DNA from: Pristiophorus japonicus
Lineage: Eukaryota
Direction: 5' to 3'
NCBI RefSeq assembly: GCF_044704955.1
Contig: NW_027251843.1
Span: 310,001 to 374,000 of the forward strand
Length of the DNA stretch: 64,000 nucleotides
The first letter of the stretch is position 1; each line of letters begins with the position of its first letter. Below, one piece after another: positions 20,030 to 64,000 of the stretch. Under the pieces are notes generated by a model. It saw nothing but the letters and a program-made list of their open reading frames with translations, was not told the origin of the DNA and searched no databases. The position numbers and the translations under genes were made by a program.

Positions 20030-20686
20030 GTGTCTATAACAACAGGTTGATACAATCAAGCAATGGAGCCCATGGATTAATTGGCCAGAGGGGAAAATCA
20101 GTCCCTCTGGAGATTCCAAGCCTGTGAAAACCCAGGACATCAAAGGATCCCACAAGGCGTGCATTCTTGGATAACGGGGCACAAAAGATAAGGAGTTATC
20201 TTTTGCCCTGTCGATTCTGTGTGTGAATTGTGGCCATCCGACTAGATCCAGACCCATCATCACAGCCATCGAGACTCAACCAGATGCATTAACTGAAAGG
20301 CAGCCCAGCAGGAGATGTGTAGAATTGAATGGATATTGAATGGATATATCTGTAAGAGCTGAGAACAAGAGCTCAGAGAGAGGAACAACAGGTCGAAGAA
20401 ACACCTCAGACCAGCAGGTCAATGAACAACGGCCACGAAGCAGCAGCGGGGACCCAACACCTTCCCTCGCTCTAAGAGCCGACAATCGACAACAGCAACA
20501 GCAGGCTGGATGGGTGATTGTATGTCTTCGGTCAATCTCTAAGAAGTCTTGTTCCGTACTTTTTAGGGTTTTTTTGTGTAATAAACAAACAGTTGGATTT
20601 TATTCTAAACTTTGCTTTATGTGTGGTACTTCCTGTAATTCCCGAGGTCTATGAATCAGAGTAGAGTGGGAAACCAACACCCTACA
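20030..20686 (+). repeat. 5'-truncated LTR, possibly the 3' LTR of copy B; same family as 48201-49015
   Basis: Long near-identical match to the reverse complement of ~48201-48840; AATAAA at ~20580; ends CCTACA. Confidence 0.8.
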
Positions 20687-36561: not shown

Positions 36562-36890
36562 CTACGCACATTCTGCTCTCCTGACCCCCTTGCTGAGGGG
36601 AGAGGAGAGGCTCTCGTGGGTGAGGCTGCAGGAGAAGCTGGCGTTGGACTCCCAGTCGGAGCCAGAGAGGGTCAGCAGGCTGCTGACACTGTAGGTGTTG
36701 TCCGAAGCTCGCAGGTAGTCGCTGGTCTGGACCCCGGCCGAAATGGTCGCCCCGTCCTTCTTCCACTCCACCTCCACCGCATCGGGGTAGAAGTGATCGG
36801 CGAGGCACACCAGGGTGGCAGTGCCCTTGGTCGTGACCTCCTCCGGGGAGGGGGGCAGCAGGGTCAGCGTGGGTGTTGTCTTCCCTCGTT
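36562..36890 (-). CDS. IGKC: Ig light chain constant exon, kappa type (shark NS4/type III-like), intact
   Basis: Acceptor ccctttcAG at 36891-36892; (K)RGKTTPTLTLLPPSPEEVTTKGTATLVCLADHFYP...VEWKKDG...YSVSSLLTL...FSCSLTHESLSSPLSKGVRRAECA*; both domain Cys, Trp and penultimate Cys present; phase matches J. Confidence 0.95.
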
Positions 36891-42735: not shown

Positions 42736-42987
42736 AGGGGAGCTGTGCCCCAGAGGTAGTGCCTTCAGGAGTGAGATGGGGAACAGATCACAGGCAGCCT
42801 GTGGTGTAGAGGGGAGACATTTCACCGGCCGAGGGCAGGTGCTGAGCCCGTTTACCTGTAAGAATGAGGTAAGTGGATGGGGAAAATGGGCCGGGCACTG
42901 AGGTAACGTCCTGTGTTGCTGGTGGAACTCCTGCTGTCTGCTCCGTCACATGTGACAAACACGCAGACACATCAGGCGGACATCTGG

Positions 42988-43445
42988 GATGGGGGATTGT
43001 CCAATGGAGAGATTGAATAGACTAGGCCTATATTCTCTAGTGTTTATAAGAAAGAGAGGGGATCCCATTGAAACGTACAAAATTCTGACAGGGCTTGACA
43101 GTGTAGATGCAGGGAGAATGCTTCCTCTGGCTGGGGAGTCTAGAACCAGGGGTCACAGTCTCAGAATAAGGGGTCGGCCATTCAGGACTGAGATGAGGAG
43201 AAACTTCTTCACTCAGAGGGTGGTGAATCTCTGGAATTCTCTACCCCAGAGGGCTGTGGAGGCTCAGTCCTTGAGAATATTCCAAAGATCGATAGATTTT
43301 TGGATATTAAGGGAATCGAGGGATATGGGGACAGTGCAGGAAAGTGGAGTTGAGGTAGAAGATCAGCCATGATCTCATTGAATGGCGGAGCAGGCTCGAG
43401 GGGCCGAATGGACTCCTCCTGCTCCTAATTCCCATGTTCTTATGG
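42988..43445 (+). mobile_element. CR1 3' end
   Basis: ORF 42989..43372. Confidence 0.88.
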
Positions 43446-44690: not shown

Positions 44691-44790
44691 GTAATCATAT
44701 GTAAACTAAAACCTTCGCATATTCAGCATTTGTGTCTTGGAAAGATTCAGTATTTAAAGTGTTAATAACGGAGCATTGGGGTTTACTTAC

Positions 44791-44825
44791 TCAGTCTGAG
44801 CTTGGTTCCTTTACTGAACGTGAGC
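44791..44825 (-). CDS. IGKJ: Ig kappa-type J segment, LTFSKGTKLRL (non-canonical FSKG)
   Basis: Preceded by a 23-RSS, followed by phase-1 donor A|GTAAGT at 44785-44790. Confidence 0.92.
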
Positions 44826-44864
44826 CACAGTGATAGCTTCCAGTGCAGAAGCTGTACAATATCC
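44826..44864 (-). promoter_or_regulatory. J recombination signal sequence, 23-bp spacer
   Basis: Plus-strand reading: CACAGTG 44826-44832, 23 nt, ACAATATCC 44856-44864 (2 mismatches to ACAAAAACC). Confidence 0.9.
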
Positions 44865-44888: not shown

Positions 44889-45037
44889 NNNNNNNNNNNN
44901 NNNNNNNNNNNNNNNNNNNNNNNNNNNNNNNNNNNNNNNNNNNNNNNNNNNNNNNNNNNNNNNNNNNNNNNNNNNNNNNNNNNNNNNNNNNNNNNNNNNN
45001 NNNNNNNNNNNNNNNNNNNNNNNNNNNNNNNNNNNNN
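44889..45037. other. Assembly gap (149 N) followed by a CT-rich microsatellite to ~45215
   Basis: N run in the sequence. Confidence 1.
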
Positions 45038-45484
45038 GCGTCTCACTCTGTTTCTCTCTCACTCACTTTCCCCCCCCACTTTTTCTCCCTCTCCCTCACT
45101 CATTCACTCATTCTCTCCTTCTCTCACTCTCTCCCTCTCCCTTTCCCTCACTCACTCACTCTCTCTCACTCACTCTCCCTTTCCCTCACAAACACTCTCC
45201 CTCCCTGCCTCTCCAAGTTGCCTGTGGCAGTACCCGGGAAAGTTGGGGATCCGACGTGTTTGGGACAAATCTCCCAGCTGCCCTTCCCGCCCCATCAGAC
45301 GGTAACCCTGGGGCCACGGAATTGCTGGAGAATGAAAGTCCCCCTCACACAGGGCTCACCTCTTTGGGCCCCTTGAACAACGGGCTCGGTCTGCAAGCGA
45401 GATGTTTGTGTTGCTGATACAGGACTTCCTCGGGGATCATTATAAAATAACGAGTTTCAGGGGCTTCAGAAATCTGTTTCCTCA

Positions 45485-45900
45485 GTCCGTGAACCGTGTG
45501 TACGTGGAGTGTGAGAGGATGCAGCCCCTCTTCCACTATTTGAAGGGGCTGCTCCTCAATTTCTGGCTCCACTTCAGTCCCACGCTCCTGGGCCTGGTCA
45601 CCTGGTGCGAGGGGAGCGGGCAGGTCAGAGGGCCTCCCCATGGGCCTGCTCCTGGGTCTGGCCACTCGGTGAGGGGGGAGCGGGCAGGTCGGAGGGCCTC
45701 CCCGTGGGCCTCCCCATGAGCCTGCCCAAGGTGGCCATCCACAGGTCCCAGTTGCACGGAGCCCATGGGCTGGTCGCACTGCCTGCCTGCCTCCCTTCGG
45801 GGGATTTGTCCGCATCTGGGTGGCCCTGGAGACGGAGCCCAGGGTAGACCTGAGGCCTTCTGCGACGAGTGGGCACCGCAGGGCCTGGAGTGTGGGTTGG
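45485..45900 (+). mobile_element. Tx1/L1-clade LINE 3' fragment between J and V
   Basis: VYVECERMQPLFHYLKGLLLNFWLHFSPTLL...GRSEGLPVGLPMSLPKVAIHRS, recognised from memory; internal duplication. Confidence 0.65.
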
Positions 45901-46294
45901 GCAGGGAAAGAGCACGAACATTTCACTTGTTCACTTTCCTTTCATGTTTATGCTTTGGGTTTTATAAGTTGTGGCCCTCTCGATAGTGGGGAGTTTGTGA
46001 GATGATTTGGATTGAGGACACAGGGACCACCCAGTGTCTCTGTGCTGTCTGAATGTACAGAGTAGAGCTGTGAGATTCTCAGTGATGAAGACACAGCCCC
46101 AATTCCTCTCTGACCCACTCCATCCTTTCCCAATTCACTGCAACTTCCAGCTGAATATTCCTGCCGTCACTCCCATCGAGCTGTGTGTCAGTCATGTGTA
46201 AAACCGTACAGGAGGTGGGGCTGTGTGTCCATTATTATATATTATATATAACTGTGGGGTGAGTCAGTACAGGAGGTGGCGCTGTGTATATTGA

Positions 46295-46322
46295 GGTTTT
46301 TGTACGGCTGTGTATCACAGTG
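46295..46322 (-). promoter_or_regulatory. V recombination signal sequence, 12-bp spacer
   Basis: Minus: CACTGTG-atacacagccgt-ACAAAAACC (perfect nonamer). Confidence 0.95.
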
Positions 46323-46621
46323 TAGAGGGGAGCTGTAATATTGCTGACAGTAATAGACTGCGACATCTTCTCTCTGCACGTTGCTGATGCTCAGGGTGTA
46401 CGTGTTGGACTGGTAACTGCCGGTGAAGCGATTGGAGGTTCCAGTGAAACGAGATACTGCATTATAGATCAGCAGAGTGGGTTTCTGCCCGGCTTTCTGC
46501 TGGTACCAATGAACATCATTGCTGGCGGATGCACTGGCGGTATAGGTGATGGTTGCAGTCTGTCCCTCACTCACTGACAGCACCGGGGGAGACTGGGTCA
46601 TGATGACGTCCCCACTGATAC
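46323..46621 (-). CDS. IGKV: Ig kappa-type V exon; open frame but Cys23 replaced by Tyr (possible pseudogene)
   Basis: Acceptor cccctcAG; GISGDVIMTQSPPVLSV...TITY...VHWYQQKAGQKPTLLIY...EDVAVYYCQQYYSSPL. Confidence 0.95.
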
Positions 46622-46808: not shown

Positions 46809-46857
46809 CTGCGACGCAGAATGCCAGAGGCCAGATCAGCTGGATGGGTGAAATCAT
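46809..46857 (-). CDS. IGKV: Leader exon MISPIQLIWPLAFCVA(G)
   Basis: accATG, 49 nt, phase-1 donor CAG|GTACC, in frame with the V exon. Confidence 0.93.
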
Positions 46858-46970: not shown

Positions 46971-47621
46971 GTCTTCACCCAGAGAAAGCCACATCAGCAC
47001 ATTTCACTTCCTCTTCTTCTCCCCGTCTGTCTCCCTCCCTCTTCACCTCCCTCTCCCTTCCTCTCTCCATTCCCCCCCTCTCTCTCCATCCCCCCCTCTC
47101 TCTCCATCCCTCCCTCTCTCTCTCCATTACTTCCTCTTTCTCCCTCTCTCTTCCCCACAGACTCCCAGGTGCAATACACTGAAATGCAGAGTAAACCTCC
47201 CTGTGCCCTGCCCCACCAATGGATGTTAACCCTTGACCCCAGACCATACCTTCTCCTGGAGTAAGGCCCCATTCCCCACAGTGGCCATCCCTTGGCCTCT
47301 CTCAGTAAACTAGCTGTTTATTCCCCAGTTAAGGGCCGTTCTGTGCTGTGGCCCTATTCTCAGTGGGGACCGGATTGGACAGAAAGCTCATTTCATGAAG
47401 GCCCAGCAGAGGGAGGAGATCCTCACCCCATCAGTGTGAGCTGGAGCGACAGGACAGGGTCTGACCCACTGCCCCATCCTGTCTGCTCAGAACATCTTCG
47501 ATTCCCTTCCCCTTTCCTTCCCCTTCCATGGCCCCGCTCCGGTTCAGGGTGTTTTTACTGGGATCAGCTGCCGACGATTGCACGTTTACAACAGGAAGGG
47601 TCCGCACTCCATATCCCACTG

Positions 47622-47877
47622 GTCCTCCAATAGGGCCCAGGAAACATGGCTCCTTCCTATTGGTCCCCCAGTAGTGAACAGGAAACCTGGCTCCTTCCTA
47701 TTCGTCCCCGAACAGGGACCAGGAAACATGGATCCTTCCTATTGGTTCTCCAATAGGGAATAGGAAATCGGGCTCCTTCCTATTGGACCTCCAATAGGGC
47801 ACAGGAAACATGGCTCCTTCCCATTGGTTCTCGAATCGGGTCCAGGAAATATGGCTCCTTCCTATTGGTCCTCCAAA
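47622..47877. repeat. ~41-bp minisatellite, ~6 copies, CCAAT-rich
   Basis: ccaatagggcccaggaaacatggctccttcctattggtcct. Confidence 0.88.
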
Positions 47878-49570: not shown

Positions 49571-49937
49571 GATCAATGCAGCCTGTGTGTGGATTTCGGG
49601 TGAGGACAGTGCTGGACACAGTGGTGAGGCCTCCTGCAGTCGGATATCCTGCTGAGAGGGTCCAGGCTTACACACGTGGAATGGGGAAGTGGGTGAGGTT
49701 GGATCGTGCTGTCGGGGCCCATGGAACTGGATCCCAGCATGAAGCCTTCCTCAGGAGAGGAGAGGGAATGTTCAGAGCCCTGGGCTCCATTTCTCACACC
49801 AGGCATTTCCTGTCCCAGTGAAAGAATGAGATGCCAATGTTGTGCCCAGGTTAGGGGCAGTCTCGTGCTGTGGGCTCAGGTCTGCAAGAGGGAATTGGAT
49901 ATATACTTGAAAAGGAACAATTTGCTGGGTTACGGGG

Positions 49938-51562
49938 GCGAGGAACTTAACACAATCACAATCACTAAGGAGGTGGTACTCAGTAAGATAATGGGACTAA
50001 AGGCGGATAAATCCCCTGGACCTGATGGCTTGCATACCAAGGTGTTATGAAAAGTCGTGGCAGGGACAATGGATGCATTGGTTGTAATTTACCAAAATTC
50101 CCTGTATTCTTGGGAGGTCCCAGCAGATTGTAAAACTGCAAATGTAACGCCCCTATTTAAAAAAGGAGGTAGACAAAAAGCAGAAAACTTTCGATCAGTT
50201 CGCCTAACATCTGTGGTTGGGAAAATGTCGGAGTCCATTATTAAAGAAGCAGTAGCAGGACATTTGGATAAGCATAATTTAGTCAGGCACAGTAAGCATG
50301 GATTTATGAAGGGGAAGTCATGTTTGATAAAGTTGCAGAATTCTTTGAGGATGTAACGAGCAGGGTAGATAAAGGGGAACCAGTGGATGTGGTGTATTTG
50401 GACCTCCAGAAGGCATTTGACAAGATGCCACATAAGAGGTTACTGCATAAGATAAAAGGTCACGGGGTTGAGGGTAATATATTAGCATGTATAGACGATT
50501 GGCTAACTAACAGAAAACAGAGAGTCTGCAAAAATGGTTCATTCTCGGGTTGGGAATCAGTAACTAGTGGGGTGCCGCAGGGATCAGTGCTGGGACCCCA
50601 ACTATTTACAATATATATTGACGACTTGGATGATGTAACCGAATATAATGTAGTCAAGTTTCCTGACGATACAACGATGGGAGGAAAAGCAATGTGTGAC
50701 GAGGATACAGAAAACCTGCAAAAGGACGTAGGCAGGCTAAGTGAGTGGGCAAAGATTTGGCAGATGGAGTGTCATGTTGGAAAGTGTGAGATCATGCACT
50801 TTGGCAGAAAAATTCAAAGAGCAAGTTATTATTTAAATGGAGAAAGATTGCAAAGTGCTGTGGTGCAGCGGGTACTTGTGCATGAAACACAAAAAGTTAG
50901 TATGCAGATACAGTAAGTGATCAGAAAGGCCAATGGAATCTTGGCCTTTATTGCAAAGGGGACGGAGTATAAAAGCAGGGAAGTCTTGCTACAGCTATAC
51001 AGGGTATTGATGTGGACACACTAATTTTGGATTCCATGTTTAAGAAAGGATATACTTGCTTTGGAGGCAGGTCAGAGAAGGTTCATTAGGTTGATTCAGG
51101 AGATGAGGATGTTGATTTCTGAGGAAAGGTTAAGTAGGTTGGGTCTCTACTCATTGGAATTCAGAGGAATGAGAGGTGATCTTATCGAAACATATAAGGT
51201 TATGAGGGGGCTTGACACGGTGGATGCAGAGAGGATGTTTCCACTGATGGGGGAGAATAGAACTAGAGGGCACAATCTAAGAATAAGGGGTGCCCCATTT
51301 AAAACAGATGAGGAGGAATTTCTTCTCTCAGTGGGTTGTAAATCTGTGGAATTCGCTGCCTCAGAGAGCTGTGGAAGCTGGGTCATTGAATAAATATAAT
51401 GCAGAGATAGGCAGTTTCTTAACCGACAAGGGAATAAGGGGTTATGGGGAGCGGGGTGGGAAGTGGTCCTGAATCCATGATCGGATCAGCCATGGTCGTA
51501 TTAAATGGCGGAGCAGGCTCAAAGGACCGTGTGGCCGACTCCTGGTCCTATTTCTTACGTTC
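49938..51562 (+). mobile_element. 5'-truncated CR1 (RT to 3' UTR)
   Basis: ORFs 50057..50356, 50320..50916, 51061..51393. Confidence 0.92.
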
Positions 51563-51659
51563 TTTAACAGGGGAGGAGTGGGACTAATTGGGTAAATCTT
51601 TCAAAGAGCCAGCACAGGCACGAATGGCCGAATGGCCTCCTTCTGTGCTGTAAGATTCT

Positions 51660-51890
51660 AGGCTGTGAGTACGGTTCACAGTTTTCTCCCCTGTCATTAA
51701 CAAACGTACAGCTGTGACAACCTTCCTCTTTCATTTCCTCTATGGGTGAAGTTTTATTCTTCCGATCTGACAATATCATCAGTTATTTTTTGCACGGGGG
51801 ATTTCTGCTGTGGTCTGAGTCTTTAATAATAACCGTCCAATCAGGCAGAATAACAGCAGCTCGGACTGGCTAGGACAGCGAACCCAGGCT
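51660..51890. promoter_or_regulatory. Candidate B-cell enhancer, copy 1
   Basis: E-box CAGCTG 51709-51714, EICE GAGGAAATGAAA (minus) 51729-51740, RUNX TGTGGT 51809-51814, MEF2-type TTAATAATAA, CCAAT. Confidence 0.5.
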
Positions 51891-51894
51891 CAGT

Positions 51895-52870
51895 GCTGAC
51901 CCTGCAACATCCTCCTCACCAACATCTGGGGACTTATGTCAAAAGTGGGAGAGCTGTCCCACAGACTAGTCAAGCACCAGCCTGACATAGTCCTACTCAC
52001 AGAATCAGACCTTTCAGCCAATGTCCCTCCCAGTGCAAACAGTCGGGAGGGAGTGGCCCTGGGAGTCCTCAACATTGACTTCGGACCCCATGAAGTCTCA
52101 TGGCATCAGGTCAAACACGGGCAATGAAACCTCCTGCTGATTACCACCTCCCGCCCTCCCTCAGCTGATGAATCAGTACTCCTCCATGTTGAACACCACT
52201 TGGAAGAAGCACTCAGAGGAGCGAGGACACAGAATGTACTCTGGGTGGGGGACTTCACTGTCCATCACCAAGAGTGGCTCGGTAGCACCACTACTGACCG
52301 AACTGGCCGAGAGGGGCGATGCTGACATTGCAATCCCAGGTACTGGAGGACTGGAGGACTGCAAACGTGGTACCTTTGTTTAAAAAGGGAGCAAGGGATA
52401 GATCGAGTCACTACAGGTCAGTCAGCCTAACCTCAGGGGCAGGATTGGAGGAATCTTCATTTAACAAAACACGGATTAATCAAGGACAGTCAGCATGGAT
52501 TTGTTAAGGGAAGGTCGTGTCTGAATAACTTGATTGAATTTTTTGAGGAGATAACAAGGAGAGTCGATGAGAGCAGTGCGTATGATGCAGTGTATATGGA
52601 TTTTAACAAGGCTTTTGTTAAGGTCCCACATGACAGACTGGTCACAAAAGTAATAGCCCATGGGATCCAGGGCAAAGTGACAAGTTGGATCCAAAATTGG
52701 TTCAGAGGCAGTTAGCAAAGGGTAATGGTTGATGGGTGTATTTCTTACTGGAAGCCTGTATCCAGTGTGGTTCCGCAGGGCTCAGTACTGGGTCCCTTGC
52801 TTTTTATTAAATGGCGGAGCAGGCTCGAGGGGCAAAATAGCCTACTCCTGCTCATATTTCTCATGTTCTT
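51895..52870 (+). mobile_element. Mixed CR1-clade fragments (endonuclease and RT)
   Basis: ILLTNIWGL...PDIVLLTES, WVGDF; ORF 52530..52715. Confidence 0.75.
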
Positions 52871-53444
52871 ATAATAAATGCCGGCCTTGTCAGCAGCGCC
52901 CACATTCCATGAATGAATAAAAAACCCATGGGCTGACAGTTCAGGAGAATAGGACACACTTTCCTCTTTCACCCTCAACCATCATCACTGAAACAGATTA
53001 TCAGCTCATTATCACATTGCTGTTTGTGGGATCTTGCTGTGCACAAATTGGCTGCCACGTTACAACAGTGACTACACTTCAAAAAGTACTTCATTGGCTG
53101 TAAAGCGCTTTGTCATCCTGAAGATGTGAAAGGCGCTATATAAATGCATGTCTGTCTTTTTCTTTCTTTCACCCAACCATAATTCCCAAGGTCACGGGGG
53201 AGCGAGTGGAACTCTCCCTAGTTTCATTTTCCTTCAAAATATCAAATACCTGGAATGAGAAAAGGCCTTTTACCCATTAGCTCATTTAATCCCCTCCCAC
53301 ACACCATGTACACCCGACCCTATAATGGACCCTACCACCCATTTAATCCCCTCCCACACACCATGTACACCCGACCCTATCATGGACTCTCCCACCCATT
53401 TAATCCCCTCCCTCACACGGTGCAGAATCTCTATGATCACGGGC

Positions 53445-56400
53445 TCTATGGGGAATAAATTCGATAGGCCCTGCAAATGGGCGCGAGGATCATGATGCGG
53501 GATTAACCCACGCCCGTAGCTCCCGATGCAGGCAGCAAGCTAACGTTGTGCTGCCTGCTAACCTACATGATTGGTGCGTGCACCCAGCACTAACTGTGCT
53601 GTTGAGTGGCTACAGGCCTCAGCGCCCGGGGCCCAAGGTTGTGTGAGGCTGGCACCAGTTAAAGCTGGCCTGCACCTCTTAATGGACAAGTGAAATGTGT
53701 CTGGAGCAGGTGCTGGAAGTGGCTGTGGAAGACATTCTGACCTAGACCAAGACGTACTGATGACACAACAGGGGAGAGAGCCGGCTCCAAGATCCTCCAG
53801 CGCTGCACTGGAGGCCTTGGGGGAGGAGGTGCCGAGGGGGAGAGATGTTCTCTACTCACAGGGGGCAAGGAGGCTTCACCAGACAAACGTTTCGAAGGCA
53901 GTGACTCCAGGATCCGAGGACCGGGATGCAGTGCCGCCAAATGTTCAATGACCTCATGAGGATGGTCAATGTCGGTGAATTCATTTTCAAATGCCGTGTC
54001 CCACCAACTGCTCCACTAGTCTCACACATTGCTCAATGCACCACACCCCCATCACCCACTACCAACAATCTCTAGCAATCAGGACTCATGTACAAGAACA
54101 TAAGGAATAGGAGCAGGAGTGGGCCATACGGCCCCTCGAGCTGGTCCACCATTCAATAAGATCATGGCTGTTTTGATCTTGGCCTCACCTCCACTTTCCT
54201 GCCTGTTCCCCATAACGCAAGAATCTGTCTATCTCAGCCTTAAATATATTCAATGATCCAGCCTCCATAGATCTCTGGGGAAGAGAATTCCAAATATTCA
54301 CGACCCGCCGAGAGAAGAAATTCCTCCTCATCTCCATCTTAAATGGGGACCCCTTATTCTAAGACTATGCCCCCTAGTTCCAGATTCCCTCACGAGGGGA
54401 AACATCCACATTCACAGCTTCACCTCACCCTCACACACTTAGATTCTGCTGGAAGCCTCATGGCCACATCTCACAGCTTGCACATACTGCCAGCTATTCA
54501 ACCATGGCACATCACCCAAACACAGGGCACCACACTCACCGATACACTTCCCTCTCTTGCAGAGCAAGGTGGCCCAGAACCCGAGGCAGCAGGAGCTCAG
54601 TGGCGGGGGGCAGGCGTGCCCAGATGTCCTTACCCCCGTGGAGGAGACGGTGCTCGCCATCATTGGCGTGCCCATCGCTGAGCTCGTGGCCAGTGGCGGG
54701 GCAGAAACATAGAAGATGATGGTATGGCCTACCTAATCCTCCTTCTCACATCCCACGTCCCCCTCAGTCCACAATCCCCTCTGATTTACAAGCTGCAGAT
54801 GGTGTAAAGCATGCCCCTCTTACAGCGACCCCCCCACCACCCTCCCGGCACTGCAACCCTCCCCTTGTACCTTTCTCCTTTCACATACCCAGGGACTGCC
54901 ACTTGGCCAGGCAGTGTTGGAAGAGCAAGAGGTGGAAAAGACAGAAGACATGATGGTGAAGACACACCGTCACTCCATTTCACACTCACAGCCACCAGCT
55001 CAGATACTGACACTGCGTATAATGTAGAGGGTAGTGTGGAGGCACGTGGTGAGACACCGGGCACGAGGGGCCTGCAGCCAGGGCAGGGGGCAAGGATGGC
55101 GCAGGTTCCAGCTCGCCGGAGGGTGATGTCATGTATTCAACCAGCATTGTAACCCATGTATAATCTGGCCAAAGTTGTACACTGTGAGAACAATGACCAC
55201 TAGGTGGGAGACACTCCTAACCTGGGCCTTCAGGTACAAAAGGGGAAGCTCCACCCACCTTCATCACTTGGAGTGCTAAGGAATAAAGGACAGGTCACAG
55301 ACTGACCTTCTCTCAAGCATGGGCCTCGTGTGCATTTATACTGTATAGTAAGGACATATCAGGTGAGGTCACACACGGGTTCTGGTGTAGAGGACTCAGA
55401 TGAGTACTGCGATGGGCGGGCTACAGAAGAAGGCTGATGGGTATGTACAATGAAATGCTTGGTGTATTGGGAAGTCTGCCAGAAAGCCTGCGCTCAATGT
55501 CAAGGAGCACGGAGCAGTCGGGCACCAGCTTGGCACAGGGCTTTGTGCAGAGCTTGGAGCCCATCCTTTCCAGCACGGAATGGTGGCCCACTCCATTGGG
55601 GCCCTTGTGGACCCGGCCATGATGCAGCGTCTGATGGTCGATGTCTCGGCTTCCATTGCAGCACAAGCAGCAGCCACCCAACGCCATGAAATCTCAGACT
55701 GCTGCCATCATGGCTGCAAATTCCAGTGTTCAAAGGGCTTGCAGGGTGTCACAGCAGACCAGTAATCTGTCCCCCAGGAATGATGCGCCCCCTCCCCCCC
55801 AGGGGAGTGGCAGTGGCTCCGTGGTGCACAAACCTACTGCCCTCTCTCAGAATGACAGCATTTCTAATCCCACCACTGCCACTCCACCAGTGTCGATGCT
55901 GTTGTCTGTCAGCCAGCCAGCCCAGACTGCTGCCGCCAAGGCCGAGGTGGTACAGTCCACAGCCGGGCCTTCCAGGCCCAGAGCTGCTCGAGGTCGCTCT
56001 CCAAGGCCATCACCAGTCTCCCCAACTGAAAGTCAGCAGCCTTCCAGCAGCCATGCTGCAGCCCCTGGGGTATCAGTGCATAGGAGCACTCGGACAGGCA
56101 AAGACACACACAAGGCAGACACCAAGGGAATGCACAGGGGGATTAGTGGGCTTTTTGATCTAATATTGGATGCAATGTCGCCCCCACCATCTGGCACCAC
56201 TGCCCACAGAAGTTTCATGCCCTCAGACCACTGGTCAAGGTCAGGTCGAGCATCTTCAAAAGCCGTCTCCTACCAACTGCACCACTAACCTCGCACACTG
56301 CTCAATGTCCGACCCCCTGCCCCCCACAATCGCTCACGTACCAACAATCTGTACCAAACACCAGGCACACCTCCCAGTCCCAGCCTCACCTCACCCCCTT

Positions 56401-57735
56401 GGAGAAGACGCTGTAGGCCATTCTTGGCAGGGGCATGGCTGAGATATAAGATGCTGGTATCCTCGTACGTTATCCTCCTTCTCACGTCCCACTTCCCCCC
56501 TCAGAATTAGAATCGCTTCTAATTTACAAGGTGTGCAGGGTGTAAGCAGGCAGCTCTTGCTTTCCCGCCTCCCCTCACCACAACTCCGCCCTTCCTCATT
56601 TCACACACCCAAATCCAGCCTGCCCAGCCCACGGGTGACCAAGCAGAGCGAGAGGAGAGTGAAGGCACACCATCACTCGATTTCTCACTCCCAGCCACCC
56701 GCTCCTCAAGGTCGACCAGCAAGGCCATCTGCAGTGTCCCCCACTGAAAGTCAGCAGCCTTCCAGCAGCCCTGCTGCAGCCCCTGGGGTAGCACTGCGTG
56801 ACATCAGTACGATAGGCAAAGACACACACAAGACAGTGACTAATGGCGATCAGTTGATCTTTTGATGTATTATTGGATGCAGATATGGATAAAGTTGGAT
56901 TGAAAAGTTTGCTTTGTGGGGGCTTTTATTTCAGCATTGTGGCCAAGAGGACGCTGTGATGGTCAGTAACAGAGGGACGGTAAGGTGTGGGACTAATGCT
57001 GAAAGGGGATTGGGGTTGTGGTCACTGGGACCACAGGCGATGATTCGATCCCAGATATCCCGGCCAGAAAGCGGCTGTCTGGGTTGCCTCCTTCCTTCCA
57101 CTTCCTCCTCCTCCCTTTGCGAGCAGAAGCTGGAAATCTGAAATAAAGGCAGTAAATGCTGGAAATACTCAGCAGGTCAGGCAGCATCTTGAGCTGAAAC
57201 GTTAACTCTGTCTCTCTCCATGGATGCTGCCTGGCCTGCTGAGTATTTCCAGCATTCCTGATCTTTGCAGGGACCTTTCTTTACCACCCAAGGCCTTGAA
57301 CATGTCCAGCAGCACCCCTTGCATTCCCTGCACACTGAAAAAGCATTGAACATTTATTGCACCAAGCCACTACTTCCATAAAATATATTGTTTTAAACAG
57401 TCCAGAGCTTAAATGCCAACATACCTGAAAGATGTGTGGCCCGTTAAGAAGCACCAACAGCATCTGTGCAGGGCTGCTTCACGCCTGCTTTTCTGTGTGT
57501 GCTTAGGGCAGGGCCATATGGTGAGCGCAAATGTCCCAATTAACAGTCATGGCTCGAGCCAGGCATTGGTGTCACCATCTGACAATCCTCATTGTGAGGC
57601 GAGTGCTGCCAACGACAGCGGTAAGGCCCTAACCAAAATGGTGGATGACATGTCCCGGGCCGCAAGCAAGGCGGCTGCGATTATTTCAACAAAACCCTCT
57701 AAATGGCTGGCACCACACCGGGGAAATTCTCGGCT
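53445..57735 (+). mobile_element. Decayed PIF/Harbinger DNA transposon (Myb/SANT-like ORF on plus, transposase tail remnant on minus) with nested CR1 and solo LTR
   Basis: RERAPRSSSAALEALGEEV...RDVLY, RTGMQCRQMFNDLMR at ~53770-53960; acidic EEEEVEGRR...IWDRIIA on minus ~57035-57115; boundaries approximate. Confidence 0.6.
55127..55361 (+). mobile_element. Short Gypsy solo LTR (235 bp)
   Basis: TGTCATG...ATCA, AATAAA, 5-bp TSD GGTGA (55122-55126, 55362-55366). Confidence 0.9.
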
Positions 57736-57744
57736 AAAGAATCA

Positions 57745-59150
57745 TAAGTACATAAGAAATAGGAGCAGGACTAGGCCATTTGGCCCCTCGAGCCTGCTCT
57801 GCCAATTAATAAGATCATGGCTGATCTGATCCTGGGCTCAGCTCCACTTCCCTGCCCGCTCCCCATAATCCTTTACTGCCTTATCGTTCAAAAATCTGTC
57901 TATCTCCAACTTAAATATATTCAATGACACAGCCTCCACAACTCTCTCAGGCAGAGAATTGAACAGATTTACAACCCTCTGAGAGAAGAAATTCCTCCTC
58001 ATCTCAATTCTAAATGGGTGACCTCTTATTCTTAAACTCTGCCCCCGAGTTCTAGATTCCCCTATGAGTGGAAACATCCTCTCTGCATCTACCTTGTCGA
58101 GCCACCTCAGAATCTTACATGTTTCAAGAAGTTCATCTCTCATTCTTCTAAACTCCAAAGAGTATAGGTGGAGCAGGCATGGAAGTGGAGCTGAGTACAT
58201 GATCAGATCAGCCATGATCTTATTGAATGGCGGAGGGGCCTATTTCTTATGTTCTGGTAACTTGCTCAACCTTTCTTCATAAGTCAGCCCCTTCATCTCA
58301 GGAATCAACCTCGTGAACCTTATCTGAACTGCCTCCAGTGCAAATATATCCCTCCTTATAATAAGGGGACCAAAACTGTACACAGTACTCTCGGTGTGGT
58401 CTCACCAATACCCTGTACAGATGTAGCAGGACTTCCCTGCTTTTATACTCCATCCCCCTTGCAATTAAGGCCAACATTCCATTTGCCGTCCTGATTACTT
58501 GCTGTGCTTGCATACTAACTTTTTGTGTTTCATGCGCAAGGACCCCCAGGTCCCTCTGTATTGCAGCATTTTGTAATCTCTCTCCATTTAAATAATAATT
58601 TGCTATTCGATTTTTTACACTCGGTCCCTTCATACAAGTTATTACCATAGATTGTAAATAGTTGAGGCCCCAACACCGATCCCTGTGAAACCCCACTAGT
58701 TACCGTTTGCCTACCAGAAAATGACCCATTTATCCTGACTCCCTGTTTTCTGCGAGTTAACCAATCCTCTATCCATGCTAATATATTAGCACCAAACCCA
58801 TGTTCTCTTATCGTGAGTGGTAATCTTTTATGTGGTATCTTATTGAATCCCTTCTAGAAATCCAAATACACCACATCCACTTGTTCCCCCATAGCCACCC
58901 TGCGTGTTACGTCCTCAAAGAACTCCAACAAATGTGTCAAGCATGATTTCACTTTCATAAAAACAGGCTGACTCTGCTTGATTGAATTCTGCTTTCCCAA
59001 ATGTCCCGCTACTGCTTCCTTGATAATGAACTCCAGCATTTTCCCAACGACAGATGTTAGACTAACTGGTCTATATTCCTGCTTTCTGTCTCCCTTTTTT
59101 AAATAAGGGCGTTATATTTGCGGTTTTCCAATCTGCTGGGACCTCTCCAG
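57745..59150 (-). mobile_element. CR1 fragments
   Basis: ORFs 57838..58215, 58298..58696, 58854..59039. Confidence 0.88.
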
Positions 59151-59157
59151 AATTTGG

Positions 59158-61862
59158 TACATAAGAACATAAGAATATAAGAATTAGGAACAGGAGTAGG
59201 CCATCTCGCCCCTCGAGCCTGCTCCGCCATTCAACAAGATCATGGCTGACCTGGCCGTGGACTCAGCTCCACTTACCCGCCCGCTCCCCATAATCCTTAA
59301 TTCCCTTATTGTTAAAAATCTATCTATCTGTGACTTGAATACATTCAATGAGCTAGCCTCAACTGCTTCCTTGGGCAGAGAATTCCACAGATTCACAACC
59401 CTCTGGGAGAAGAAATTCCTTCTCAACTCGGTTTTAAATTGGCTCCCCCGTATTTTGATGCTGTGCCCCCTAGTTCTAGTCTCCCCAACCAGTGGAAACA
59501 ACCTCTCTGCCTCTATCTTGTCTATCCCTTTCATTATTTTAAATGTTTCTATAAGATCACCCCTCATCCTTCTGAACTCCAACGAGTAAAGACCCAGTCT
59601 ACTCAATCTATCATCATAAGTTAACCCCCTCATCTGCGGAATCAGCCGAGTGAATCGTCTCTGTACCCCCTCCAAAGCTAGTATATACTTCCTTAAGTAT
59701 GGTGACCAAAACTGCACGCAGTACTCCAGGTGCGGCCTCACCAATACCCTATACAGTTGCAGCAGGACCTCCTTGCTTTTGTACTCCATCCCTCTCGCAA
59801 TGAAGGCCAACATTCCATTTGCCTTCCTGATTACCTGCTGCACCTGCAAACTAACATTTTGTGATTCATTCACAAGGACCCCCAGGTCCCTCTGCAACGC
59901 AGCATGTTGTAATTTCTCCTCATTCAAATAATATTCACTTTTACTGTTTTTTTTTCCAAGGTGGATGACCTCACATTTTCCGACATTGTATTCCATCTGC
60001 CAAACCTTAGCCCATTCGCTTAACCTATCTAAATCTCTTTGCAGCCTCTCTGTGTCCTCTACACAACCCGCTTTCCCACTAATCTTTGTGTCATCTGCAA
60101 ATTTTGTTACACTACACTCTGTCCCCTCTTCCAGGTCATCTATGTATATTGTAAACAGTTGTGGCCCCAGCACCAATCCCTGTGGCACACCACTAATCAC
60201 CGATTGCCAACCTGAAAAGGACCCATTTATCCCAACTCTCTGCTTTCTGTTAGTTAGCCAATTCTCTATCCATGCTAATACATTTCCTCTGACTCCGCGT
60301 ACCTTTATTTTCTGCAGTAACCTTTTATGTGGCACCTTGTCGAATGCCTTTTGGAAATCCAAATACTCTACATCCATCGGTACACCTCTATCCACCTTGC
60401 TCATTATATCCTCAAAGAATTCCGGTAAATTAGTTAAACATGATTTCCCCTTCATGAATCCATGTTGCGTCTGCTTGATTGCACTATTCCTATCTAGATG
60501 TCCGGCCATTTCTTCCTTAATGATCGCTTCAAGCATTTTCCCCACTACAGATGTTAAACTATCCGGCCTTTAGTTAACTGCCTTTTGTCTGCCCCCTTTT
60601 TTAAACAGAGTTCAGAGAATTTTGGTAGATTATAACGAATGCATCTGCTATAACTTCCGCCATCTATTTTAATACCCTGGGATGCATTTCATGAGGACCA
60701 GGGGACTTGTCTACCTTGAGTCCCATTAGCCTGTCCAGCACTACCCACCTAGTGATAGTGATTGTCTCAAAGTCCTCACTTCCCACATTCCCATGACCAG
60801 CAATTTTTGGCATGGTTTTTGTGTCTTCCACTTTGAAGACCGAAGCAAAATAATTGTTTAAGGTCTCAGCCATTTCCACATTTCCCATTATTAAATCCCC
60901 CATCTCATCTTCTAAGGGACCAACATTTACATTAGTCACTCTTTTCCGTTTTATATATCGGTAAAAGCTTTTACTATCTGTTTTTATGTTTTGCGCAAGT
61001 TTACTTTGATAATCGATCTTTCCTTTCCTTATTGCTTTCTTAGTCATTCTTTGCTGTCGTTTAAAATTTTCCCAATCTTCTTGTTTCCCACTAACCTTGG
61101 CCACCTTATATGCATTGTTTTTAATTTGATACTCTCCTTTATTTCCTTGGTTATCCATGGCTGGTTATCCCTTCTCTTACCGACCATCTTTTTCACTGGA
61201 ATATATTTTTGTTGAGCACTATGAAAGAGCTCCTTAAAAGTCCTCCACTGTTCCTCAAGTGTGCCACCGTTTAGTCTGTGTTGCCAGTCTACTTTAGCCA
61301 ACTCTGCCCTCATCCCACTGTAGTCCCCTTTGTTTAAGCATAGTATGCTCGTTTGAGACACGACTCCCTCACCCTCAATCTGTATTATAAATTCAACCAT
61401 ACTGTGATCACTCATTCCGAGAGGATCTTTTACAAGGAGATCGTTTATTATTCCTGTCTCATTACACAGGACCAGATCTAAGATAGCTTGCTCCCTTGTA
61501 GGTTCTGTAACATACTGTTCTAAGAAACAATCCCGTATGCATTCTATGAATTCCTCTTCAAGGCTACCCTGTGCGATTTGATTTGACCAATCGGTATGTA
61601 GGTTAAAATCCCCCATGATTACTGCCGTTCCTTTTTCACATGCCTCCATTATTCCCTTGATTATTGTCCGCCCCACCGTGAAGTTATTATTTGGGGGCCT
61701 ATAAATTACGCCCACCAGTGACTTTTTCCCCTGACTATCTCTAATCTCCATCCACAATGATTCAACATTTTGTTTATTAGATCCAATATCATCTCTCACA
61801 ACTGCTCTGATATCATCCTTTATTAACAGAGCTAGCCCACCTCCTTTCCCTTCTTGTCTATC
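59158..61862 (-). mobile_element. Relatively young CR1 ORF2 (EN and RT) with few lesions
   Basis: ORFs 61044..61799 (IYRPP, GDFNL, SDH), 60664..61158, 59184..60545 (453 aa RT); TTCTTATG tail. Confidence 0.95.
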
Positions 61863-62429
61863 TTTTGAAGGGCGGTAAGAGAAGGGATAACCAGGCGTGG
61901 ATAACCAAGGAAATAAAGGAGAGTATCAAATTAAAAACCAATGAGTATAAGGTGGCCAAGGTTAGTGGGAAACTAGAAAATTGGAAAAATTTTAAACGAC
62001 AGCAAAGAATGACTAAGAAGCAATAAAGAAAGGAAAGATAGATTTCAACCAATGCATCCACAATTTATGCATCCACTTCATTGAAGACCCTAGGATGCTG
62101 GCCATCAGGTCCAGGGGACTTGTCCACCTTTAGTTCCATTATTTTACTGAGTACTTTTTCACGAATGGTAGCGATTGTTTTCTCAGCACAGAATCTCTCC
62201 CAGCCAGGATCTCAGAACACACTGTTCTTCAAAAGGGTTCCTGTTTAAGGATTCATGGGATTTTGGGGGCGGAGAGAGGGGGCAGTAGGACATTGGCTGA
62301 AAGGTCTGATTCTGTGAGTAGGACTATGTCAGGCTGGTGCTTGACTAGTCTGTGGGGCAGCTCTCCCACTTTTGGCACAAGTCCTCAGATGTTGGTGAGG
62401 AGGACGTTGCAGGGTCAGCACTGAGCCTG

Positions 62430-62660
62430 GGTCCACTGTCCTAGCCGGTCCGAGCTGCTGTTATTCTGCCTGATTGGACAGTTATTATTAGATGCTCAGA
62501 CCACAGCAGAAATCCTCCATGGAAAAAATAACTGAAGAGACTGTCAGATCGGAAGAATGAAACTTCACCCACAGAGGAAGTGAAAGAGGGAGGTTGTCAC
62601 AGCTGTACGTTTGTTAACGACACGGGAGAAAACTGTGAACCGCGCTCACAGCCTAGAATC
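62430..62660. promoter_or_regulatory. Candidate B-cell enhancer, copy 2 (inverted)
   Basis: EICE GAGGAAGTGAAA 62574-62585, CAGCTG 62600-62605, ACCACA, TTATTATTAG, ATTGG. Confidence 0.5.
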
Positions 62661-62749
62661 TTACAGCACAGAAGGAGGCCATTCAGCCCATCGTGCCTGT
62701 GCCGGCTCTTTGAAAGAATTACCCAATTATTCCCACTCCTCCCCAGTTA

Positions 62750-64000
62750 AAGAACATAAGAAATAGGAGCAGGAGTAGGCCACAGGGCCCCTCGAGCCTG
62801 CTCCACTATTTAATACGATCATGGCCGATCCGATCATGGACTCAGGTTAATTCCCAGCCCGCTCCCCATAACCCCTTATTCCATTGAGTGTTAAGAAACT
62901 ATCTATCTCTGTCTTAAATATCTTCTCTGACCCAGCTTCCACAGCTCTCTCAGGCAGCGAATTCCACAGATTTGCAATCATCTGAGAGAAGAAATTCCTC
63001 CTCATCTCAGTGTCCTCTACTCTAAAGACTGATACAAAATATTTGTTCGGAGTTTCTGCCATCTCCATGTTTTCCATTATTAATTCCCTCGTTTTGTCCT
63101 CTCAGGGACCATCATTTACTTTAGCCACTCTTTTCCTTTTTATATACCTATAGAAACTCTTGCTATCTGTTTTTATATTTTGTGCTAGTTTACTTTCATA
63201 GTCTATCTTCCCTTTCTTAATCACTTTTTTAGTCATTCTTTGCTGGCTTTTAAAAGCTTCCCAATCTTCAGTCCTCCCACTAGTTTGGGACCCTTTGTAT
63301 GCCCTTGTTTTTAATTGGATACCGTCCTTTATTTCTTTAGTTAGCCACAGATGGCTATCTTTTCTTTTACACCATTTCCTCCTCACTGGAATATATTTTT
63401 CTTGAGAGTTGTGAAATATCTCCTTATATGTACGCCACTGTTCATCAGCCGTCCTATACTTTAATCTATTTTCCCAGTCCACTTTAGCCAACTCTGCCCT
63501 CATACCTTTGTAGTCTCCTTTATTTAAGCTTAGTACGCTGGTTAGAGATCCAACTTTCTCACTCCCCCACCCCATCTGAATTTGAAATTGAACCATGTTA
63601 TCATCACTCAGTCCAAGGGGATCCTTTACTAGGAGATTGTTTATTAATCCTGTCTCATTACACAGGACCAGATCTAAGATAGCCTGCCCCCTGTTTGGTT
63701 CCGTTACATACTGCTCAGGGAACCCATCTCTTATGCACTCTATGAACTCTTCCTCAAGACTACCCTGCCTGATTTGATTTATCCAATCAATGTGGAGGTT
63801 AAAATCACCCAGAATTATTGCTGTTCACTTTTTACAAGCCACCACTATTTCTTGCTTTATACTCCGACCAACAGAGTTGCTTCTGCTAGGGGGCCTATAG
63901 ACTACGCCCATCAGTGACTTTTTCCCTTTATTATTCCTTATCTCCATCCAAACTGTTTCAACATCCTGATCATTTGAGCCAATATCATTTCTCACTATTG
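62750..64000 (-). mobile_element. CR1 with internal deletion (3' end joined to endonuclease region)
   Basis: ORFs 62847..63077 and 63102..63596. Confidence 0.9.

Follow-up and report, generated by a model that had tools for sequence, protein, structure and literature searches.

An inverted repeat upstream of a kappa light-chain cluster in Pristiophorus japonicus: one copy is probably a small templated insertion into a CR1 element

The 64,000 nucleotides of Pristiophorus japonicus DNA analysed here (contig NW_027251843.1, positions 310,001 to 374,000, hereafter the window) are repeat-rich vertebrate DNA with one immunoglobulin (Ig) light-chain cluster, of kappa type, on the minus strand. Upstream of its variable (V) gene, a unit of about 720 nt carrying a group of short regulatory-type motifs is present twice in opposite orientations, which raises two questions: how the second copy arose, and whether the motifs take part in the expression of the kappa gene. 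A previous reading made from the letters alone (the sequence-only reading) took the unit for a light-chain enhancer and its inverted copy for the sign of a head-to-head sister kappa cluster beyond the window end. Our analysis indicates that the second copy is probably a neutral, small templated insertion inside a CR1 element, element C.

Self-BLAST of the window aligned 51306-52026 (copy 1) with 63007-62288 (copy 2) over 721 columns at 90.6% identity, the third-ranking of 176 non-self matches, and the inverted duplication announced at ~51310-52025 and ~62288-63010 is thus real. The pairwise alignment shows identical internal junctions in copy 1 and copy 2, in agreement with the claim that both carry the same transposable-element junctions. 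The unit consists of four parts, namely the end of a CR1 element (A), an older CR1-type tail (B), a segment without recognised repeat and the start of the open reading frame (ORF) of a long interspersed nuclear element (LINE), and 503 of its 719 nt (~70%) are derived from retroelements. The label CR1 is presumptive and was given from ORF and tail features. A duplication in the assembly is ruled out as the source of the repeat because the copies are 9.4% diverged. A large palindrome around 57.2 kb was rejected, the single-copy stretches between the copies having no mirror partners, and for this reason we take it as a coincidence that the centre of the repeat pair (57157) adjoins a self-inverted 100-bp element at 57155-57256. 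No structured RNA was found across the 64 kb (0 Rfam matches at the gathering threshold).

The origin of copy 2 can be read from what surrounds the two copies. The left end of copy 1 is internal to the contiguous element A, and its right flank runs on into the same LINE. Copy 2 interrupts a near full-length host CR1, element C, which on the minus strand reaches from past 64000 down to 57737; the interruption lies in the linker between the endonuclease and the reverse transcriptase (RT). The pieces of this host are collinear and co-oriented on an intact CR1 reference, with offsets 69-1047, then copy 2, then 1140-1242, then the nested element D, then 1263-1755, 1935-2266 and 2277-2705; in the same mapping, element C also reads straight through the junction around element D. 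The outer flank of copy 2 aligns to reference position 60821 and the inner flank resumes at 60765, past a 109-nt filler, a gap which means that the target lost up to 55 nt. Since the host CR1 is collinear on both sides whereas copy 1 retains its native flanks, copy 2 is, as read from these alignments, not the edge of a duplicated cluster; it is a derived state, in which about 830 nt were inserted into a LINE. Among the six CR1 tails compared, those of the two copies are closest to each other (222/256 identical, versus 77-83% to the 4 other tails) and have diagnostic bases in common. As read by eye on the CR1 mapping, the outer junction has a microhomology of ~2 nt, and neither poly(A) nor a target-site duplication was seen at copy 2.

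From these junctions we infer a mechanism of template switching or ectopic gap repair. A break or a stalled fork would arise in element C, repair would switch via the ~2 nt of microhomology to an opposite-strand template ~11 kb away, 720 nt would be copied from 51308-52026, the filler would be picked up and the ends rejoined, after which the copies would drift 9.4% apart. Such a process would resemble fork stalling with template switching (FoSTeS) or break-induced replication mediated by microhomology (MMBIR), or else ectopic gap repair, and the breakpoints do not separate them. Template-switch signatures have been described, together with the remark that breakpoints do not tell FoSTeS from MMBIR (PMC9199198). 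The insertion shares with this class the inverted copying of a short stretch from nearby, additional bases at a junction, a small target loss and a junction of microhomology scale (PMC9199198); it differs in being old, about 9% diverged, in having only ~2 nt of microhomology and in that its inner end falls where the putative donor has a deletion.

Several observations weigh against a simple insertion copied from copy 1. The microhomology is only ~2 nt, and no source of the filler was found in the window (62179-62287 has no match there better than E=0.3). The inner end of copy 2 (52026; 62287) lies at most 2 nt from an internal deletion of ~24 codons which, relative to homologues, follows just after 52028 in the LINE ORF of copy 1. 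The simple model leaves this without explanation, and the coincidence suggests one shared break, or a filler formerly present in the donor. The identity also varies along the repeat (0.864, 0.926, 0.898 and 0.958 in successive parts, chi-square p=0.007, the last 59 nt being identical); drift alone does not predict this, and later gene conversion may be responsible. Finally, a paralogous cluster that lies outside the window may have been the true donor. Two further arrangements were considered and rejected. An inversion of 49940-63008 splitting one CR1 came into question since element A starts near the end of the host endonuclease part; element A is nested in tail B, and the host continues at 62178. 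Nor is the CR1 tail of copy 2 the host's own tail brought there by an internal deletion, the host having its own tail at 57737-58167.

A capture at the RNA level, by a template jump of the RT during insertion of element C or by element A transducing its 3' flank, would account for the fact that the insert opens with a CR1 tail oriented like the host. CR1 enzymes presumably need their own 3' tail, and this route would require at least three jumps plus a return within 55 nt, at a site where poly(A) and target-site duplication are absent and target sequence was lost; we consider it improbable. The remnant of a large inverted duplication, creating a head-to-head kappa cluster beyond 64000, is very improbable, given that homology ends at both edges of the 720 nt, that a single host CR1, cut in two, forms the flanks, and that a cluster-scale inversion would put the body of element A (49940-51307) into 63008-64000, where the host endonuclease region stands instead. 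The homology that a segmental duplication of an Ig cluster would extend past the unit into flanks or genes was not found, and the promoter, leader, V, joining (J) and constant (C) parts have no duplicate elsewhere in the window. Kappa clusters are indeed numerous in sharks, with about 60 of them in nurse shark (PMC5192425), and the C regions of three other Pristiophorus japonicus gene models are 97-100% identical to that of the window. Other kappa clusters thus very probably exist in this genome, but the inverted repeat neither locates nor orients them; as copy 2 interrupts a single collinear host CR1, the repeat says nothing on the sequence past 64000, and the predicted sister cluster is left unsupported by a duplication bounded at 720 bp. 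As such, the duplication belongs to the routine turnover of repeat-rich shark DNA, and neither selection nor a sister gene should be deduced from two copies with common motifs at 90% identity.

The second question concerns the segment of the unit without recognised repeat. The ~240 bp attributed to it are present but amount to at most about 215 bp, the LINE homology reaching back to query residue 73, that is nt 51876 (P0014). All five motifs of the sequence-only reading were recovered in both copies. In copy 1 these are the Ets-IRF composite element (EICE) at 51729-51738, the E-box CAGCTG at 51709-51714, 14 bp away, TGTGGT at 51809-51814, YTAWWWWTAR at 51823-51832 and CCAAT at 51837-51841; in copy 2 the EICE lies at 62576-62585 and each of the other patterns is matched too. 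The EICEs had been located correctly, in ranges 2 nt too wide, and the two differ within the spacer (A versus G). From the EICE of copy 1 to the TATA-like box of the V promoter there are 4809 bp, as in the ~4.8 kb proposed, and 4872 bp to the leader ATG. The persistence of these motifs in both copies would follow from the usual survival of short motifs at 10% divergence and is not demonstrably due to selection.

The segment could itself be derived from a repeat, for instance from the adjoining APE-endonuclease LINE (as its 5' or inter-ORF region) or from an unrecognised dispersed repeat. The motifs would then be there by chance or form part of the promoter of the element itself. This is quite possible, if still on the unlikely side. 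The segment runs directly into the N-terminus of the LINE ORF in a repeat-dominated window, and the LINE family is dispersed in sharks, a piece of it being fused into an unrelated gene model of Heterodontus francisci. The assignment of this LINE is based on sub-threshold Pfam matches, 61 phmmer homologues and the Heterodontus francisci fragment. In contrast, when the three sense frames of both copies were set against what lies upstream in 8 LINE relatives, only 1 of 48 comparisons beat its 200 shuffles, and this was with a distant Ser-rich protein, so that an upstream ORF of the LINE was rejected for want of a convincing match. None of the 61 phmmer matches had its best stretch starting before residue 58, and no third copy of 51660-51890 is found in the window except for a 19-bp match (E=0.012). 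Across species, protein-level proxies of the segment (one frame, or five gene-model extensions) gave no convincing match.

Alternatively, the segment 51660-51875 of copy 1, and perhaps its counterpart in copy 2, could be a B-cell cis-element acting on the V promoter 4.8 kb away; this would not conflict with copy 2 having arisen by insertion. PU.1 or SpiB with IRF4/8 would bind the EICE and an E-protein the E-box 14 bp away; both the element and this occupancy are possible but rather doubtful. The strongest argument is an extended EICE-type site, since the 13-mer pattern AGAGGAARTGAAA occurs exactly three times in the window, once at the V promoter and once in each copy, and in none of 100 dinucleotide shuffles (Markov expectation 0.010-0.016 per window), although the pattern length was set after the data had been seen. 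The corresponding expectation is 0.034-0.058 per window for the 12-mer and about 0.5 for the strict 10-mer, and an 8-mer adjoining both EICEs (6 occurrences in the window, 3 of them at these sites) was not counted as evidence. The loose EICE is not enriched, with 5 observed versus 2.94 expected and 15 of 100 shuffles reaching 5. All five chosen motifs fell within 140 bp in 0/60 simulations, the choice being post hoc. On motif panels assembled by us from consensus sequences and run in 180-bp windows, the two copies were the top two windows with 20 motifs and ranked second and third with 15. The score of copy 1 was however equalled by the best windows of 7/30 simulated 64-kb sequences on the first panel and of 50/100 on the second, and copy 2 beat 30/30 simulations on the 20-motif panel only with PU.1 counted on top of the EICE. 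A panel score as high as that of the candidate segment was also obtained at 46110-46300, just 3' of the V recombination signal sequence (RSS), in partly AT-rich simple sequence.

Conservation brings no further support for an enhancer. Motif positions are identical at 34/35 between the copies versus 134/151 for the rest of the segment (Fisher p=0.11), and the adjoining dead LINE surpasses the segment in conservation (183/191 versus 158/176, p=0.026), so that the argument from motif conservation fails. Moreover, it is in the copy nearer to V that the site differs from the one in the promoter, a LINE boundary lies directly beside the AT-rich MEF2 match and CCAAT, the kappa cluster itself looks defective (see below) and no cross-species match to the segment was obtained in tests which were weak and at the protein level only. 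What supports the enhancer is one strong EICE-type 13-mer and not the five-motif cluster. We nevertheless regard it as unproven rather than refuted, because the conservation test has low power, with two copies only, one of them probably neutral, and a cluster which is probably defective. Before the insertion of elements B and A, the segment would have adjoined 49580-49882 and its distance to V would have been ~1.8 kb shorter. This single-copy stretch may be part of the same native block.

In mammals, the kappa 3' enhancer lies 3' of C. The premise taken from the literature, namely PU.1/IRF4 at the kappa 3' enhancer, holds, and E2A is documented at mammalian kappa enhancers as well (PMC9454692, PMC13639285), the mouse 3'Ek and Ed binding PU.1, E2A and IRF (PMC13639285), which speaks for the enhancer; MEF2 has no occurrence in the excerpt of PMC13639285. 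The segment resembles the mammalian kappa 3'/Ed and lambda enhancers by its match to the EICE consensus (PMC9454692) with a nearby E-box, close to a light-chain gene. Unlike these enhancers, the candidate lies 5' of V, in a cluster with a single V-J-C set, and measures about 200 bp between retroelements. Elements in the V region, namely E88 and E34, are present in the mouse as well (PMC13639285).

Table 1. Features of the window (coordinates in nt; the CR1 assignments are presumptive)
Feature	Position	Strand	Basis or remark
Copy 1, native context; donor or paralogue of donor	51308..52026	+	Self-BLAST, alignment; both flanks continue the elements cut
Copy 2, putative derived inverted insertion	62288..63007	-	Self-BLAST, alignment, CR1 mapping
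Filler, 109 nt, inserted with copy 2	62179..62287	.	Bounded by CR1 alignment
Element A, 5'-truncated CR1	49940..51564	+	Self-BLAST, reference mapping; final 257 nt open the duplicated unit
Tail B, 3' end of older CR1-type tail, 95 nt	51565..51659	+	In-window tail matches; ORF C-terminus continues across insertion
Segment without recognised repeat, all five motifs inside	51660..51875	.	Window and protein-level comparisons
APE-endonuclease LINE ORF, 5' part	51876..52325	+	Pfam PF03372 E=0.033, PF14529 E=6.7e-5, both under curated cut-offs; homologues
Host CR1 element C, endonuclease part	63010..64000	-	Offsets 69-1047 of contiguous CR1 reference (63995-63010)
Host CR1 element C, resumed after copy 2	62039..62178	-	55 nt further on reference; offsets 1140-1242 = 62141-62039
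Host CR1 element C, RT part and own 3' tail	57737..59158	-	Offsets 1263-1755, 1935-2266, 2277-2705
Element D, second CR1, nested in C	59160..62048	-	Reference mapping, tail comparison
Extended EICE-type site, 13-mer, copy 1	51729..51741	-	Departs from promoter site
Extended EICE-type site, 13-mer, copy 2	62573..62585	+	Identical to promoter site
EICE-type 13-mer, V promoter	47002..47014	-	Upstream of octamer-like variant and TATA-like box
Tandem array, 41 bp x 6.3, CCAAT and GGAA-core motifs	47620..47876	-	Repeat detection; horn-shark match
Kappa leader exon	46809..46857	-	Sequence reading; gene-model comparison
Kappa V exon, then 12-spacer RSS	46323..46621	-	First conserved Cys codon = Tyr
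23-spacer RSS (44826-44864) and J	44788..44864	-	FGxG reads FSKG
Kappa C exon	36562..36888	-	Pfam C1-set E=1.4e-24

The retroelements around the repeat (Table 1) show nothing unusual and share with CR1-clade and other shark APE-type LINEs the fragments of endonuclease and RT ORF, the 5' truncation, the nested insertions and the short tandem 3' ends. Element A splits tail B, the other half of which lies at about 49883-49939. The 5' end of element D (61867-62048) is an inverted duplicate of 61006-61188 (170/183 identical) and resembles a 5'-inverted LINE insertion. Another two-copy inverted repeat, probably related to long terminal repeats (LTR), joins 20047-20686 and 48829-48201 over 641 columns at 88.9%, and the first part of the window (1-22000) contains several nested, broken LTR retrotransposon ORFs (gag, RT, integrase), presumably Gypsy-like from their motifs.

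The kappa context of the repeat is confirmed by a single V-J-C arrangement with 12/23 RSS and a C of kappa type. The C exon has 72-100% identity to 30 shark light chains, 23 of which are named kappa-like; the closest matches are Pristiophorus japonicus gene models with the automatic name "lambda-1-like", and a PDB search with C was uninformative for the isotype. The leader and J each match published nurse-shark NS4 primers at 17/18 bases, by eye (primers from PMC2193156), and NS4, or type III, is kappa (PMC5192425). As in the NS4/type III clusters of cartilaginous fish, there is one leader, a V with RSS12, an RSS23 with J, and a C; the V-J distance is about 1.5 kb here, including a 149-nt gap, versus about 0.5 kb in nurse shark (PMC2193156). 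This assembly gap, at 44889-45037, falls in the V-J interval at a distance of 25 nt from the J RSS. Intron sequence at 45358-45599 (V-J) and 42856-43041 (J-C) is common to other Pristiophorus kappa gene models (53/56 residues in one stretch), which implies that the paralogous clusters are collinear well outside the exons. A functional V and J would have both Cys and the FGxG motif; here the first V Cys is replaced by Tyr, the paralogues P0088 and P0092 having Cys, and J has lost a Gly of its motif. In the promoter, an octamer-like site and a TATA-like box lie at about 46960-46915; the octamer has one mismatch to the consensus, and no exact octamer is present in the window. Because of these substitutions at the V Cys, the J Gly and the octamer, the cluster looks defective and is perhaps a pseudogene.

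A tandem array of 41 bp, 0.76-1.0 kb upstream of the leader ATG, contains 8 CCAAT and 11 GGAA-core matches per 260 bp; the rest of the window reaches at most 4 and 7. In one of 30 kappa gene models, P0071 of Heterodontus francisci, a spurious opening peptide matches the array (scores 64, 55 and 47, each reached in 0/300 shuffles) and then runs into the kappa leader region. By this match, two distant sharks appear to have the array upstream of their kappa V, which makes it a candidate conserved regulatory element and a better lead than the segment 51660-51875. It is possible that the array is a more general repeat; a homologue search with the translated array returned 30 candidates, longer proteins only, none at E<=10. 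The proximal V promoter also matches gene models of Heterodontus and Chiloscyllium.

Taken together, these elements would allow a wider model, which we consider unlikely though conceivable, in which each shark kappa cluster has its own 5' module. Its parts would be an EICE in the promoter, the 41-bp array, conserved and placed about 0.9 kb upstream, and a distal element with EICE and E-box (51660-51875), which CR1 insertions would since have pushed off and an accident duplicated. The open-access literature, as covered by titles and abstract openings of the top-ranked papers and with subscription journals largely outside, yielded no mapped shark light-chain enhancer, and the word "enhancer" does not occur in the main text of PMC2193156, PMC5192425, PMC11223323 and PMC4279169. 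Shark Ig clusters are separate units, and exclusion among them has been discussed as probabilistic enhancer activation (PMC2435157). The EICE-type 13-mers and the CCAAT/Ets array are concrete regulatory candidates. If the model is true, cartilaginous fish would have a PU.1-IRF light-chain enhancer upstream of V rather than 3' of C, and this would give a handle on the activation of one among many autonomous clusters per B cell.

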